Virus record (IMG/VR): IMGVR_UViG_2537561712_000020
DNA: 4,254 nucleotides
Direction: 5' to 3' (one strand)
Source of the DNA: a virus
Taxonomy: Duplodnaviria; Heunggongvirae; Uroviricota; Caudoviricetes
Shown: positions 1 through 4,128 of the stretch, in pieces
Numbering within the stretch: the stretch's first letter is position 1
Layout: each line of letters starts with the position of its first letter
Notes under the pieces: model-generated
What the model was told of the DNA's origin: nothing
The model's database searches: none
Seen by the model: only the letters and a program-made list of their open reading frames with translations
Program-made: the position numbers and the translations under genes

Positions 1-528
1 GAACGACGACTGTGACTGCACTGTGACCGCCACACTTTCAGTTTTAATTTCTTCCTGTGTTTCCGCTTCCCGGACTGGTAACGCAACACCTGCCGGCTGA
101 GGAAAGGCTTTACCATCGGTTTCCGTTACCGATGCAGCTTTCGGCTCTGCCGGTAAATTATCGCCCGGTATGCAGTAACGATATTTACCGTCCTGATTTA
201 CGCGAATCAGACGACCTTTGCTGACAGCCATCGCCAGTGATGAATTCGCCCGGCGGGAGGTAATCCCGAACATTAACGCCAGTTCGTCAGCCGACTGAGG
301 ACCATGCTGTTCAATCGCGTTAATCAGCATCTCTGCAGTGGTTTTTGGGGCCGCTTCAGTTGCCTCACTCGTCAGCCACCACATCGACCCCTTGTTATCA
401 GCTTCGCCACGACGCTTCAGCTTCCAGAGTTCGGTAACAGCATCGTCACGGCTGATTTCAAGACGGGCTGCAATCTCGTGCGACGAGGCTTTTTTCAGTG
501 CTTTCAGTGCGTCAAAAACGGTTTCCAT
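1..528 (-). CDS. Hypothetical protein with two winged-helix-like repeats, 5'-partial in window (start codon at 528-526, runs off the left edge; at least 176 codons)
   Basis: Not in the ORF track because it has no stop in the window. I checked every plus-strand triplet in this frame from 1 to 528 and found no TTA/CTA/TCA (minus-strand stops). ATG at 528-526 is preceded by GGGAGGAAAA (plus 536-545 reversed) about 5 nt upstream. Translation begins [52 protein letters not shown], then a second similar unit [44 protein letters not shown]. Sits directly downstream of the P-like gene, the position of ren in lambda. Function not recognised. Confidence 0.6.
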
Positions 529-562: not shown

Positions 563-1024
563 TCAGACAAAACCGGCCGCCTTCCGGCGCTCATATTCCT
601 GTTTCAGCAATTCAATTGGCGTTGGCCCTGGCGGGCGTTTGGGTGCTGCCAGTTGTCGCCGGACTGGCGGAACACTGAGGCCATTACCAACATGCTTTGC
701 CCATTTCGTCAGCTGCCTTTCCACAAGCCGTTTTAACTCCCCTTCGGTCATCTGGCGCTCAATCCCCTTTGAACGCATCTCGAGGCAAATGTGGTACAGC
801 ACCGGCTGTGGCCACGGGTATTTATCACTCCCGTCGTACCGCCAGGATTCATTCCTCCAGCGACGGTACTCCTCCATCACGGCATCCACCGTCAGGCCAA
901 ATGGATTTGCCCCGCTCTCCGAAATCAACGCCACAAACTCAGCCAGATCCGGAGGCCACGTTTCACCCGCCCGGCAGCGGTCCATGCACTGACGGCAGAC
1001 CTGCCGGATTTGCTGTTCAGTCAT
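563..1024 (-). CDS. Replication protein P-like (putative replicative-helicase loader); start codon uncertain
   Basis: ORF-track frame 563..1228. The C-terminal two-thirds resemble lambda P as I recall it (EQQIRQV, YPW motif, [17 protein letters not shown] near the C-terminus). The start is placed at ATG 1024-1022 because on the minus strand it forms ATGACTGA with the TGA stop (1019-1017) of the upstream initiator gene, a classic coupling arrangement. Alternative in-frame starts are ATG 1105-1103 (GGGA about 5 nt upstream) and ATG 1228-1226, which would overlap the upstream gene by 88 or 212 nt. Confidence 0.6.
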
Positions 1025-2057
1025 CGCGCCAATCTGAGCAATCCAGAGCTTCGAAGGTGCGGCCCCGTTCTTCTGGGTCCAGCGGTTCGAATACACCTCC
1101 CCCATGAGTTCCCACAGCTTCCAGGCCGTTTCCGTTGCTGATAAATCCGTTTTCACGTTCCCACTGTTCACGTGCTGCCCGAATTTCCTGAACTGCCCGT
1201 GATGCGGTGCCACCTGGTGCTGCTGCATGGTTTACCCCTTTGCTGACTGGTTTAACCTGCGCCCTGACGTGATTTACGTGACGGGCGAATTTCTGCTCCC
1301 ACTGAATCTGCGTAAACACTTTCCCCTCCGCTGCCCAGTAGTCCCGGAAGGCGGCAAGTTCAGCAGGTGTAAATTCTGTCTCCGGCAAAGCCATCCCCCA
1401 CAACGCAGCCCGTCGTCGAAAATCCCGTGACGGATACCAGCTATCGCTCATCGGGAATTTTCCGATGGGTTCGCTCAGGCCATACAGGAATACAGGGGGG
1501 GCTGCCTGTAACGACAAAACTTCCTGCTCACTGGTCGGAGCACTCTCGCGTGCGTTATGTGTGGGGTTTAGATCTTTGGGTTCCTTTGGGTTCCGTGATC
1601 CGTTTTTGGGTGTCTTTGATGGAAAATTTGGGTGTCTTTGGTTATTTTCCATGCAGCTAAGAGTTCTGTTTTTGGGTCTGTTTTGTGCTGAAACATAACC
1701 ATTTTCGGTACTGTTTTTATTAACAGCACCAATTTTACCCACCTTTAAAGACTCCCGTTTTTGGGTGTATTCAGGCTCGGCAACACTTTCTTCTACACCG
1801 ATAAGTCGGTACACCACAATTTGCTTTGTTCTGCCTTTTCTCTCACCGGTATCAACAATTAACCCAATCTCCATCAGGTGTCGTAAGCTGTCCTGCACAG
1901 TCTTTTTGTTCAGTTCCGTTACTTCTGCCAGTGCAGATACAGACGGGTATGCACACAAATCGGCACCGCACATATCAGCAAGCCAGGTCAATACTGACTT
2001 ACTGGATGAACTGCCGGTTTTCACCTTTTTAGCCCATCGTAGTGCATCGATACTCAT
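1017..2057 (-). CDS. Phage replication initiator / replisome organizer (lambda O analogue): N-terminal HTH DNA-binding domain, repeat-encoded Pro/Lys-rich linker, C-terminal DnaT-like region
   Basis: ORF-track frame 1017..2132. Start preferred at ATG 2057-2055 (MSIDALRWAKK...), preceded by AGGGGGG; the ATG at 2132 has no comparable signal. The N-terminus (KSVLTWLADMCGADLCAYPSVSALAEVTELNKKTVQDSLRHLMEIGLI) matches the pattern of replisome-organizer N-terminal HTH domains. The middle is low-complexity (PKNGSRNPKEPKDLNP) and is encoded by the repeat array. The C-terminal part (FTPAELAAFRDYWAAEGKVFTQIQWEQKFARHV) resembles DnaT-type C-terminal domains from memory. Overlaps the YdaT-like stop by 29 nt. 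Confidence 0.75.
   Translation of the reverse strand: MSIDALRWAKKVKTGSSSSKSVLTWLADMCGADLCAYPSVSALAEVTELNKKTVQDSLRHLMEIGLIVDTGERKGRTKQIVVYRLIGVEESVAEPEYTQKRESLKVGKIGAVNKNSTENGYVSAQNRPKNRTLSCMENNQRHPNFPSKTPKNGSRNPKEPKDLNPTHNARESAPTSEQEVLSLQAAPPVFLYGLSEPIGKFPMSDSWYPSRDFRRRAALWGMALPETEFTPAELAAFRDYWAAEGKVFTQIQWEQKFARHVNHVRAQVKPVSKGVNHAAAPGGTASRAVQEIRAAREQWERENGFISNGNGLEAVGTHGGGVFEPLDPEERGRTFEALDCSDWRDD
1564..1776. repeat. Phased direct-repeat (iteron-like) array plus AT-rich patch inside the initiator gene; candidate origin of replication
   Basis: Plus-strand TTTGGGT at starts 1575, 1585, 1605, 1627, 1671 and 1760, with spacings of 10, 20, 22, 44 and 89 bp. An exact 14-mer TTTGGGTGTCTTTG occurs at 1605-1618 and 1627-1640; related units are at 1669-1685 and 1757-1770. 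Positions 1690-1750 are about 68 percent AT. In lambda the origin lies inside gene O with iterons followed by an AT-rich segment. Confidence 0.6.
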
Positions 2058-2580
2058 ACGCCCCCCTGGCAGACATTTGTTTATCTGCAAAGTAATATTG
2101 GTATTGCTGACGATACGCGTGCTTGAAAGCAATAGCTTTTTCTATAAGCTCGTCAGTCTCACGTTCCACAACAACTGGATCCGCAAAAAGCAGCCCGGAC
2201 TCCACCACATCGCCATATTCTTTGTTTAACCCGGCGATCATGTACGTAATGCTTTTTCCGTCAGTAATTTCACAATACAATCTGAAATCGCTGATCCGGA
2301 TAGCCTCCATAATTGCCGGAATCAGCGCCGTGAATTTGTCACGCTTATCTCTGGTGTCGATAGCTTTCCAGCGTTCGAATATCTTCACCCGGTTAACGCC
2401 CAGCGCCCGTTGATCAACCTCGCCATCATTAAACGTGACGCGTTGAACATCGATGTTCGGGCGTTCTTTCAGAGCCCAGAATGCTTCCGTGATTAATATC
2501 GTCGCCTGCTCCTGTGTCATTCCTGGTCGGCATACCCAGGTATCCAGAGCCTCACAAACCTGTTCAGTGGTGATTTTCAT
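2029..2580 (-). CDS. YdaT-family protein (proposed CII-like regulator; earlier described as a prophage toxin)
   Basis: 182-codon ORF with ATG at 2580-2578. N-terminus MKITTEQVCEAL and the internal segment KFTALIPAIMEAI resemble Rac-prophage YdaT as I recall it. Lies immediately downstream of the Cro-like gene (17-nt overlap), the conserved ydaS-ydaT arrangement. Family assignment is from memory, not a search. Confidence 0.65.
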   Translation of the reverse strand: MKITTEQVCEALDTWVCRPGMTQEQATILITEAFWALKERPNIDVQRVTFNDGEVDQRALGVNRVKIFERWKAIDTRDKRDKFTALIPAIMEAIRISDFRLYCEITDGKSITYMIAGLNKEYGDVVESGLLFADPVVVERETDELIEKAIAFKHAYRQQYQYYFADKQMSARGAYEYRCTTMG

Positions 2581-2791
2581 TGTTCAACCGCCCCGCCCGC
2601 TTTGCCTTACGATATTCGTCATAAACTTTGGGGTCGTACTGAAGTTCCCCGCCGGATGCCTCTTGCAGGCGCATCGCGCGACCTTCAGGAACCAGTTCCC
2701 CCCATGCAGCAACGCTTGCCAGCCTAACTCCTGCGACATTGGCAAGCTTTGTTTTGCTGCCAAAAAACGCTATAGCATCAATTTTCAACAT
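2564..2791 (-). CDS. dicC: Cro-like HTH regulator of the DicC/YdaS family
   Basis: 75 aa; ATG at 2791-2789, AAGGG about 7 nt upstream. HTH-like segment GSKTKLANVAGVRLASVAAW. C-terminal half (LVPEGRAMRLQEASGGELQYDPKVYDEYRK...RLNNENH) matches my recollection of E. coli DicC. Divergent from the repressor gene across a 76-bp operator region. Confidence 0.8.
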   Translation of the reverse strand: MLKIDAIAFFGSKTKLANVAGVRLASVAAWGELVPEGRAMRLQEASGGELQYDPKVYDEYRKAKRAGRLNNENHH

Positions 2792-2867
2792 ATCGAAACC
2801 CTTAGATTTTCCTAAGGAAACTAGATCGTAGAGAAACCTAAGTCAAGAAAAATTAGAATTACCTAAT
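2792..2867. promoter_or_regulatory. Divergent control region with two operator-like palindromes (O1 2800-2817, O2 2852-2867) and back-to-back promoter candidates
   Basis: O1 is CCTTAG-ATTTTC-CTAAGG (perfect 6-bp arms). O2 is ATTAG-AATTAC-CTAAT. Minus-strand promoter candidate for the Cro-like gene: -35 TTGACT (plus 2841-2846), 17-bp spacer, -10 TAGTTT (plus 2818-2823), abutting O1. Plus-strand -10 candidate TAGAAT (2854-2859) lies inside O2 and ends 8 nt before the repressor ATG. Confidence 0.6.
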
Positions 2868-3275
2868 ATGAAAAACGAAACCTTCGGTGCTCGCCTCTTA
2901 TACAGGCGAAAAAAATTAAAACTGTCTCAGGCCGCATTAGGTAAGCTGGTCAAAGTGGCTCACGTAACAATTTCTCAATGGGAAAGAGATGAAACACAGC
3001 CAGCGGGGAAGAGATTATTCGCACTGAGCCAGGCGCTTCAGTGCTCGCCGACTTGGCTTCTTTTTGGAGATGAAGATAAGCAACCAGGCGAACCGATCCC
3101 AGATAATCAGCCAGTCAATCTGACAGAAGATCAAAAAGAGTTGCTTCAACTGTTCGACGCACTGCCTGAGTCAGAGCAAAAGGCTCTGTTGTCAGAGATG
3201 CGTGCTCGAGTTGAGAATTTCAACAAACTTTTTGAAGAACTACTCAAAGCTCGCAAAAGAAGCGCAAATAAATAA
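2868..3275 (+). CDS. dicA: DicA-like HTH (XRE-family) repressor; CI analogue with no S24 peptidase domain
   Basis: 135 aa. HTH segment LSQAALGKLVKVAHVTISQWERDE. Segments LFALSQALQCSPTWLLFGDEDKQP and ALPESEQKALLSEMRARVENFNKLFEELLKARKR match E. coli DicA as I remember it, including the 135-aa length. No Shine-Dalgarno sequence upstream of the ATG. Confidence 0.88.
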   Translation: MKNETFGARLLYRRKKLKLSQAALGKLVKVAHVTISQWERDETQPAGKRLFALSQALQCSPTWLLFGDEDKQPGEPIPDNQPVNLTEDQKELLQLFDALPESEQKALLSEMRARVENFNKLFEELLKARKRSANK

Positions 3276-3373
3276 CCCCCCTTTTTTTCGCAACTCTCTG
3301 TAATAAAAAGCACAAACTTTCAAATACTTGTGTTTTTTACATCAAGAAGCTTAGGTTTTTCTACACAAAAAGC

Positions 3374-3403
3374 TTGACCATAACTCTTAGGCTATTCTAA
3401 ATT
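3374..3403 (+). promoter_or_regulatory. Candidate rightward early promoter with embedded operator-like palindrome O3 (3386-3401)
   Basis: -35 TTGACC (3374-3379), 18-bp spacer, -10 TAAATT (3398-3403). O3 is CTTAG-GCTATT-CTAAA, the third copy of the TTAG-N6-CTAA core, sitting between the -35 and -10. Confidence 0.4.
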
Positions 3404-3616
3404 CTACTCATCAAGACACCGCACGGTGTTCTCAGCAAACAGTTCCGCTACCCGGCGTTAAGGGGAAGCAGAGGATTTCTCAGTGGGCGAGTCAAACATC
3501 AGAATGGAAGGCGTCCAGGGATCAGCAAAGAAACAGCGATGGCGCTTTATATTGATATCAGCGCCATTGCCGGACAGGTAAGAGTTATCAGAGCGGTAAC
3601 TAAGCGGTATGCGCCT

Positions 3617-3817
3617 TTACTTCAGAAAGTCTCTGGTGAGTGCACCGAAGATATTGTCAACGATTTCGTCATCGAACTGCGAGGACTCATCTTCAGTTAC
3701 AAGGTGACCACAATTTTTGCAGATGGCTCCCGCGAAACTGTCAGAGCCCTGCGGCTTAAAGGATGTGTCAAAGACTTCGCCACCACATTCTGGGCAAGAA
3801 AACTTGATTGTATTCAT
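3617..3817 (-). CDS. Small zinc-ribbon protein (CxxC-N21-CxxC) with acidic C-terminal tail; function unknown
   Basis: 66 aa from ATG 3817-3815: MNTIKFSCPECGGEVFDTSFKPQGSDSFAGAICKNCGHLVTEDESSQFDDEIVDNIFGALTRDFLK. GAGAGGAAA lies 8 nt upstream of this ATG; the TTG at 3823 used by the ORF track is too close to the SD. Codon usage is ordinary. The overlapping plus-strand 99-aa ORF (3539..3838) has no SD and 7 of its 8 Arg codons are AGA/CGG/CGA, so I treat that one as the antisense shadow. Confidence 0.6.
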   Translation of the reverse strand: MNTIKFSCPECGGEVFDTSFKPQGSDSFAGAICKNCGHLVTEDESSQFDDEIVDNIFGALTRDFLK

Positions 3818-3909
3818 AACCAATTTCCTCTCGAGTAACAGACCCCTCAGAGGATACCACCTCGCCTGACGTGGTTAAAAGCAGGCAACGCTAACCACAA
3901 GGAGCCGAC

Positions 3910-4128
3910 ATGCAGAAACGAGACCCCGTCATCATCGCGCCAGACTATACCGATGATGAACTTTATGAGTGGATGCACCAGAAAATTAATGCAGCGCAGG
4001 ATCTGAAATGGGCCAATGAAGCCAGGGCTAAGCAGGCTGAAAATCTGTCCGCTCTGGAGCAGGATATCACCAATCTGGAAAAAGCAGCGGCATTAAGCAT
4101 TGCCAGAATGATTACATACCCGCGTTAA
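3910..4128 (+). CDS. ydfC: YdfC-like small protein (Qin-prophage type), function unknown
   Basis: 72 aa, MQKRDPVIIAPDYTDDELYEWMHQKINAAQDLKWANEARAKQAENLSALEQDITNLEKAAALSIARMITYPR. AGGAG at 3900-3904 lies 5 nt before the ATG. Length and position downstream of dicA match K-12 ydfC. Symbol assigned from memory and synteny; treat as provisional. Confidence 0.7.
   Translation: MQKRDPVIIAPDYTDDELYEWMHQKINAAQDLKWANEARAKQAENLSALEQDITNLEKAAALSIARMITYPR

Follow-up and report, generated by a model that had tools for sequence, protein, structure and literature searches.

Among the closest described relatives of the system considered here are the YdaT proteins of the prophages CP-933P (PDB 8BT1; PMC9986795, PMC8630535) and Rac. 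In CP-933P, a YdaT tetramer binds the inverted repeat TTGATT-N6-AATCAA at the end of ydaS (PMC9986795), and YdaT activates the promoter PRE933P (PMC8630535). In Rac, the footprinted YdaT-box, ATGATT CATGAA AATCAA, carries the ATG of ydaT in its spacer and is needed for a 29-fold leftward activation by YdaT (PMC11879457). Here, we analysed a 4,254-nucleotide (nt) stretch of a virus of the Caudoviricetes (IMG/VR record IMGVR_UViG_2537561712_000020), called the window below, which is the part of a Qin/DicA-type lambdoid prophage devoted to immunity and replication and includes the early-right operon. On its minus strand, a dicC-like gene of 75 amino acids (aa; the Cro analogue, 2564..2791) is followed by a YdaT-family gene of 183 aa (2029..2580). 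Quite probably, these genes form with dicA a lambda-like switch, in which the 183-aa protein acts as an analogue of CII that binds a box at its own start codon and activates an antisense promoter. The analysis itself establishes gene structure, family membership, fold, synteny and the conservation of both the box and a -10 element.

A first-pass annotation made from the sequence alone had assigned the 183-aa product to the YdaT family, and the assignment holds. The Pfam match is marginal when taken alone (PF06254, or DUF1019, 24.8 bits for a cut-off of 21, residues 59-131), and PHROG 163, named ‘CII-like’, matches at 3e-40. A single-sequence phmmer search of the PDB matched 8bt1 at no better than E=0.21, so that a profile search was needed, and BLASTP against Rac YdaT matched 29 residues at 41% identity. 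Searched exhaustively with phmmer, a set of 1.84 billion representatives yielded only 62 relatives, among them full-length homologues at 30-47% identity and a CP-933P-type fragment (P0110, E=2.5e-4); the intact YdaT proteins of Rac and CP-933P were not reached by this search. Profile searching added homologues from Citrobacter, Raoultella, Salmonella, Serratia and Rahnella, and a profile of 42 homologues matched the YdaT structures 8bt1 (E=8e-20) and 3c4r (E=1.5e-19). Likewise, hhalign placed residues 1-130 on residues 1-111 of Rac YdaT with a probability of 99.1%. The AlphaFold2 model is all-helical (predicted local distance difference test, pLDDT, 83.9), and Foldseek put 8bt1 first (probability 1.0, template modelling score, TM, 0.71), with no other significant match. 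Its N-terminal domain is, as is characteristic of YdaT, an all-helical, POU-like helix-turn-helix (HTH) domain, in which the alpha2-alpha3 loop is unusually long. In two alignments, one of 14 and one of 42 homologues, residues R70 and W71 do not vary; they align with the RW pair of Rac (R57/W58) and of CP-933P. CP-933P YdaT has one fully conserved arginine, Arg60, in the recognition helix alpha3 (PMC9986795), and the H56A/R57A mutant of Rac YdaT loses DNA binding (PMC11879457). Because profile, hhalign, fold and the R70/W71 evidence combine, YdaT membership is secure for the DNA-binding domain. The 183-aa protein gave no match to the Pfam family Phage_CII at E<=0.1 and shares neither sequence nor fold family with lambda CII; it is an analogue of CII in function only, outside the Phage_CII sequence family.

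The partner gene had been taken for the YdaS half of a YdaS/YdaT-type pair. The Cro-like part of that description stands, and the YdaS part does not. The 75-aa protein matches DicC over its full length (NCBIfam NF007282, 167.6 bits, cut-off 130), matches P22_Cro (PF14549, 49.7 bits, cut-off 30.2), is 83% identical to DicC of K-12 and is encoded next to dicA in divergent orientation, as a member of the DicC/P22-Cro group. Membership of the YdaS family (PF15943, YdaS_toxin) was considered and rejected, with 18.8 bits for a cut-off of 30. Rac YdaS, which scores 107.7 bits against PF15943, shares 29% identity with the 75-aa protein and also passes the P22_Cro cut-off, so that DicC and YdaS are related Cro-type families. 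The 75-aa protein is thus DicC, of P22-Cro type, an analogue and distant relative of YdaS but not a member of its family.

Both overlaps described in the first-pass annotation were recovered from the open reading frame (ORF) list and the sequence. The dicC-like stop codon (TGA, 2566..2564) lies beyond the ATG of the YdaT-like gene (2580..2578), giving a 17-nt overlap (2564..2580, minus strand) that is identical in dicC/ydfX of the K-12 Qin prophage. The YdaT-like ORF ends with a stop codon at 2031..2029. The initiator ORF behind it is open over 1017..2132 from a TTG, yet its PHROG 1032 alignment begins at residue 26; in a 96%-identical RefSeq locus, the initiator (7028..8068) starts 29 nt before the stop of the YdaT gene (8040..8591). 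On these two grounds, the initiator start is placed at the ATG at 2057..2055, with an overlap of 29 nt (2029..2057). Because of their strong family matches, the 75-aa and 183-aa ORFs are real genes and not chance ORFs.

The predicted binding site of the 183-aa protein lies at the junction of these two genes. It is a YdaT-box-like 6-N6-6 inverted repeat of 18 bp (TTGAAC AATGAA AATCAC, minus strand, 2570..2587), whose spacer holds the YdaT-like ATG, with a register identical to that of the Rac YdaT-box, and which covers the last codons of dicC. For cross-locus comparison, 203 loci were collected and grouped into 44 clusters by their surrounding 170 nt, with 85% identity as the threshold. At the start codon, all 44 clusters have a 6-N6-6 box whose core is TGA...TCA; in three lineages the ATG has moved by 3 nt (one codon) and the box has kept its position. 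Moreover, although the YdaT coding sequence does not include the left half-site, this half-site and the recognition helix co-vary across clusters: helices of the form N-R-(I/V)-(N/K) pair with TGAAC, whereas NNKQ, RNTQ and NNQQ helices pair with TGATT. The window protein, with an NRVK helix, has TGAAC in the left half and a TGATT-type right half. Both helix and box differ from those of CP-933P (NRVKIFERW versus RNTQKIFRW; TTGAAC-N6-AATCAC versus TTGATT-N6-AATCAA). The first-pass annotation had proposed to look for tandem direct repeats that precede the repressor gene. This comparison instead points to the inverted repeat over the YdaT-like start codon as the site that would matter.

At a fixed distance from the box lies a predicted -10 hexamer, TACGAT (2608..2613, plus strand), that would belong to a PRE-like promoter antisense to dicC. 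Read antisense to the Cro-like gene, a TANNNT hexamer beginning 38 or 39 nt from the start of the box (20-21 bp from the box) occurs in 43 of the 44 clusters, and in 35 of the 36 clusters of a strict set whose flanks are less than 70% identical; the background per position is 0.44 counts for the 44 clusters and 0.37 for the strict 36. Conservation within the hexamer is limited to the T, A and T positions, and an extended -10 signature precedes it in many of these 36 loci (G two bases upstream in 25, T three bases upstream in 18). The spacing between box and hexamer is also kept in two Klebsiella phages, as well as in Pectobacterium phage ZF40, a Stenotrophomonas phage and mEp237. In these last three, the box precedes the annotated start by 36-41 bp or falls within the coding region as annotated. 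Since the spacing holds even with the box away from the start codon, the link is between box and hexamer, not between box and start codon. With the hexamer at -12..-7, the centre of the box falls near -41.5, the usual position of an activator that replaces the -35 element at class II promoters. We thus infer an antisense promoter without a -35 element, starting near 2620 (plus strand) and reading through dicC toward dicA. The primers used for the YdaT-dependent PRE933P fragment span both box and hexamer, in agreement with this promoter model, and the 29-fold, box-dependent activation measured in Rac agrees with it as well. The annotated cII genes of phages HK639 (L242) and mEp237 (L241) carry N-terminal extensions of 16-30 residues; in mEp237, box and -10 element are found at an internal ATG (+48), which suggests that its true cII start lies downstream of the annotated one.

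In the mechanism that we propose, DicA, the analogue of CI, would bind three operators in the 76-bp region between dicA and dicC. The rightward operon would express DicC first, the overlapping 183-aa CII analogue second, and then the initiator and the helicase loader. The 183-aa protein would bind the inverted repeat that holds its own start codon and the last dicC codons, centred about 41.5 bp upstream of the opposite-strand promoter, and would activate a leftward transcript, antisense to dicC and reading into dicA, as lambda CII does at PRE. This transcript would favour the establishment or the maintenance of repression. DNA binding, activation and oligomeric state of the 183-aa protein are predictions. 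The likeness to lambda CII and PRE extends to the gene position, to an activator site over the -35 region of a weak leftward promoter, and to the location of that site at the cro/cII junction, at the 5' end of the gene for CII itself, with a transcript antisense to cro that enters the repressor gene. However, lambda CII recognizes a direct repeat (TTGC-N6-TTGC) whereas the YdaT family recognizes an inverted repeat (PMC9986795).

A second 6-N6-6 site, TTGAAC ATCGAT GTTCGG, containing the perfect 14-bp palindrome GAACATCGATGTTC, is located inside the YdaT-like gene (2443..2460), 127 bp from the start-codon box. It is the sole match in the window with at most two mismatches to TTGAAC-N6-GTTCAA. 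The site is invariant in four alleles, but these are 97% identical, so that its invariance is uninformative. It is possibly, on a weak case, an auxiliary site or a second operator for a tetramer. In addition, the minus strand reads CTGAAC at 2558..2566, a third xTGAAC half-site, separated from the left box half by 20 bp or two helical turns. K-12 Qin has this half-site too, and it may be the counterpart of the weak flanking sites reported in CP-933P.

The K-12 Qin prophage carries the same locus, with an identical box and an identical -10 element. Its YdfX (96 aa) corresponds to the 183-aa protein cut after residue 94, to which it is 84% identical over residues 1-94, and lacks the C-terminal region altogether. 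Residues 1-96 of CP-933P YdaT do not bind DNA (PMC9986795) and, by analogy, YdfX is probably inactive. Rac shares the position of the ATG in the box spacer and has a -10-like hexamer 20 bp from the box (TATGAT, versus TACGAT here), but the gene upstream of ydaT is ydaS, not dicC. For the 183-aa protein, no host target comparable to rcsA is known. In CP-933P, the partner repressor is PaaR2 instead of DicA, and the inserted toxin-antitoxin (TA) genes are absent here.

Every locus examined has the same gene order: a short HTH repressor, a divergent Cro-like gene, a YdaT-family gene and replication genes. This synteny was seen in loci of Serratia, Citrobacter, Raoultella, Salmonella and Rahnella and in phages, and the type of Cro gene and the replication module swap freely between loci. 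The conserved core of the YdaT-family protein (residues 1-163) is paired with unrelated replication modules: an O protein with a DnaT domain plus P, HTH_36 plus a DnaC-like protein, and DUF1376 plus P. The 183-aa protein or its relatives already bear the label cII in several phage records. Scanning for related loci with P0097 found nothing, and scans with Rac and CP-933P YdaT returned near-identical loci only, which were merged on de-duplication.

The first-pass annotation had also suggested that the protein, being longer than Rac YdaT (140 aa) and, as it turns out, CP-933P YdaT (141 aa), carries an extra C-terminal region. This is partly so. About 13 of the extra residues are located in the alpha2-alpha3 loop (residues 36-56), which has about 21 residues here against 14 in CP-933P and varies from 9 to 23 residues among YdaT proteins (PMC9986795). 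The C-terminal region is indeed some 20-30 residues longer than in Rac YdaT. Instead of the single 29-residue C-terminal helix of CP-933P YdaT, the model shows a hairpin, with a helix at 111-130, a proline-containing turn that bears the conserved motif LLxAxPxxFERExDE, and a helix at 135-181. The hairpin is common to the whole subfamily, 153-aa Serratia proteins included, and probably mediates oligomerization; in the YdaT family, a long C-terminal helix assembles the tetramer on which DNA binding depends. The last 20 or so residues are variable, have low model confidence and overlap the next gene; in phage mEp460, a 173-aa allele has another tail beside another replication gene. This variable tail is best read as a mosaic joint.

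Two further kinds of allele were noticed. In five Salmonella proteins (P0086, P0120, P0121, P0136, P0142; locus L013), the sequence past the conserved LLKK continues with an unrelated arginine-rich stretch of about 40 residues before returning to the common ...TRDMTS end, which looks like paired compensating frameshifts fixed in the whole lineage. In many ‘homologues’ from the databases (P0026, P0028, P0039, P0042, P0044, P0049 and others), the N-terminal 94 residues are fused to DnaC-like, DUF968, initiator or other sequences; these fusions appear to be deletion scars of decaying prophages (compare K-12 ydfX) or assembly chimeras.

Several observations weigh against the proposed box and promoter. 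Pattern statistics within the window (TTGATT-N6-AATCAA, TTGAAC-N6-GTTCAA and TTGAAC) gave 4 matches for about 2.4-3.2 expected, which is not significant, and the case for the box therefore rests on the cross-locus comparison. As a palindrome, the window box is poor, with 3 of 6 symmetric positions, and its right half-site is constrained by the M-K-I codons. Phage HK639 has no recognizable box, and one cluster (L199) has CACGAT in place of TANNNT. A scan for consensus promoters and terminators found nothing inside dicC and left the antisense promoter unflagged, as expected if that promoter depends on an activator, but lending it no support. The study of Rac places the YdaT-dependent activity at PracR4, about 190 bp from the box (PMC11879457). 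The reporter of that experiment carried the two promoters together, with PracR4 left intact (PMC11879457). Finally, a preprint of 2024 still describes K-12 ydfX as of ‘unknown function’.

The same features must be weighed against other roles for the 183-aa protein. It could act at the box mainly as a repressor or roadblock on its own transcription and translation and on the downstream replication genes, with no antisense activation. The start codon of its gene falls within the box, which lies 5' of the genes for O and P, YdaT is termed ‘CII repressor’ in the structural paper (PMC9986795), Rac YdaT binds over the PydaST promoter too (PMC11879457), and the second candidate site 127 bp downstream could permit looping by a tetramer. 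However, a roadblock needs no conserved TANNNT with TGn on the opposite strand at a fixed spacing, and the spacing to the -10 element persists in ZF40 and the Stenotrophomonas phage, whose box sits upstream of the ribosome-binding site instead of covering the start codon. Since box-dependent leftward activation has been measured in both Rac (PMC11879457) and CP-933P (PMC8630535), we consider this role unlikely. A role chiefly as an accessory of the replication module, coupled to the initiator rather than to the lysis-lysogeny decision, could be read from the 29-nt overlap between its gene's stop and the initiator start, and from the different last 20 or so residues of the 183-aa and 173-aa alleles, each beside different replication genes. 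Nevertheless, the core combines with unrelated replication modules, the tail in question is the low-confidence mosaic joint, and homology and box both indicate transcription control, which makes such a role very improbable.

The remaining reading, in which the pair is a type II TA module with a 183-aa toxin and a Cro-like antitoxin and autorepressor, is encouraged by nomenclature: the RefSeq product name is ‘toxin YdaT family protein’, and the Pfam names are YdaT_toxin and YdaS_toxin. A pair of small genes that overlap, with the one for the DNA-binding protein leading, does resemble a TA operon, and Rac YdaS and YdaT are toxic when expressed ectopically (PMC5700377, PMC11879457). Yet the toxicity of Rac YdaT has been ascribed to regulation of rcsA (PMC11879457), and in CP-933P, where YdaT is not toxic, the pair was demonstrated to be no TA system (PMC8630535). 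In fold, the 183-aa protein is an HTH transcription factor with 8bt1 as its sole strong structural match, and apart from the name of PF06254 no toxin family was found in the Pfam and NCBIfam scans. In viable phages, the gene sits at the place of cII within a complete module for immunity and replication, and its partner is DicC, an operator-binding Cro analogue. The TA reading was rejected on fold, context and literature, and we regard it as extremely improbable. The regulatory Cro/CII reading favoured in the first-pass annotation fits far better, and a box-bound CII analogue that activates an antisense promoter remains the explanation that we prefer.

The position of the pair between operators and replication genes, also remarked in the first-pass annotation, agrees with the layout of the window, with three repressor operators on one side and the initiator and loader on the other. 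The operators, of the form TTAG-N6-CTAA, lie in the dicA-dicC intergenic region (2792..2867, 76 bp), at 2802-2815, 2828-2841 and 2853-2866. Their core matches the K-12 Oc operator TTGTTAGTCATAACTAACAA (PMC3441716), although their flanks differ from it. In all, the window contains five such sequences for 1.24 expected, all in two regulatory regions. The other two (3351-3364 and 3387-3400) flank a promoter-like TTGACC-18-TAAATT (3374..3403, plus strand) downstream of dicA, which looks like the DicA-repressed promoter of a leftward, dicB-type operon. The dicA-like repressor, the CI analogue (2868..3275, plus strand, 135 aa), has no peptidase domain and matches DicA over its full length (NF007257, 241.6 bits), but it is only 63% identical to DicA of K-12 Qin, whose operators differ from those of the window. 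The 5' half of dicC has diverged from K-12, whereas its 3' half, the box and the 5' end of the YdaT-like gene are nearly identical. The Qin switch is therefore present here as a heteroimmune variant, and dicC contains a mosaic joint.

Downstream of the pair, the minus strand encodes the replication initiator, with an HTH and a DnaT-like domain (1017..2057; PHROG 1032 at 1e-90, Pfam DnaT domain 60.8 bits, RefSeq), and a lambda P-like helicase loader (563..1024; Pfam Phage_lambda_P 60 bits, PHROG 109, RefSeq). The longest P-like ORF (563..1228, 221 aa, ATG at 1228) would share 212 nt with the initiator; with the ATG at 1024, the product has 153 aa and its gene overlaps the initiator stop by 8 nt (ATGACTGA), in agreement with RefSeq. 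The linker of the initiator gene (1575..1771) contains iteron-like direct repeats, TTTGGGTGTCTTTG and TTTTTGGGTxTxTT, in at least six copies, which are probably the replication origin, as in lambda O. A partial DUF1627-type gene (1..528, minus strand, from the RefSeq annotation of a homologous locus) ends this side of the window. Right after the dicA stop, an inverted repeat (TAAAAAGCACAA / TTGTGTTTTTTA, 3304..3339) ending in a run of T is probably the dicA terminator. Beyond it, two ORFs overlap: one on the plus strand (3539..3838, 99 aa), which is a RefSeq ‘hypothetical protein’ in a homologous locus and matches no NCBIfam family, and a zinc-ribbon ORF on the minus strand (3617..3823, 68 aa, CxxC...CxxC) that passes NCBIfam NF047912 with 57.2 bits for a cut-off of 37. 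The real gene is probably the minus-strand one. The last gene is ydfC (3910..4128, plus strand; RefSeq, homologous locus). An Rfam scan of the window found no RNA family; dicF sits past the window end.

By megablast, 4280 of 5426 complete E. coli genomes carry DNA related to the window. The top match, 96% identical, is a prophage adjoining ompW with dicB, exo, xis and int, and the ‘PPompW’ prophages of Shiga toxin-producing E. coli encode a protein 99.5% identical to the 183-aa product. Most E. coli genomes, those of Shiga-toxin strains among them, thus carry this type of locus, which through DicA controls the division inhibitors DicB and DicF. The pair itself consists of a DicC (Cro-like) and a YdaT-family (CII-like) regulator in an arrangement that is ordinary and already annotated. 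The 183-aa protein is an uncharacterized, divergent branch of a known regulator family, and the biology is the expected variation on the lambda switch.

Nevertheless, the analysis argues against the ‘toxin’ label that RefSeq gives to the 183-aa protein. It also gives an identity to the K-12 gene of ‘unknown function’, ydfX, as a truncated CII analogue of which the 183-aa protein is the intact form. We are evenly divided on whether a wider statement holds, in which the box is, throughout the family, a class-II-type activator site centred about 41.5 bp upstream of a conserved antisense promoter (TGnTAnnnT) devoid of a -35 element. The true YdaT-dependent ‘PRE’ would then adjoin the box, starting near 2620 on the plus strand in the window, and the activation across about 190 bp that was published for Rac in 2025 would have been wrongly assigned to PracR4. 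Moreover, the DicC-linked subfamily of E. coli, with its C-terminal hairpin and its hybrid box, could differ in its oligomeric state and loop to the site at 2443..2460. The analysis also provides a precise promoter model for how regulators of the YdaT family would switch on the repressor gene.

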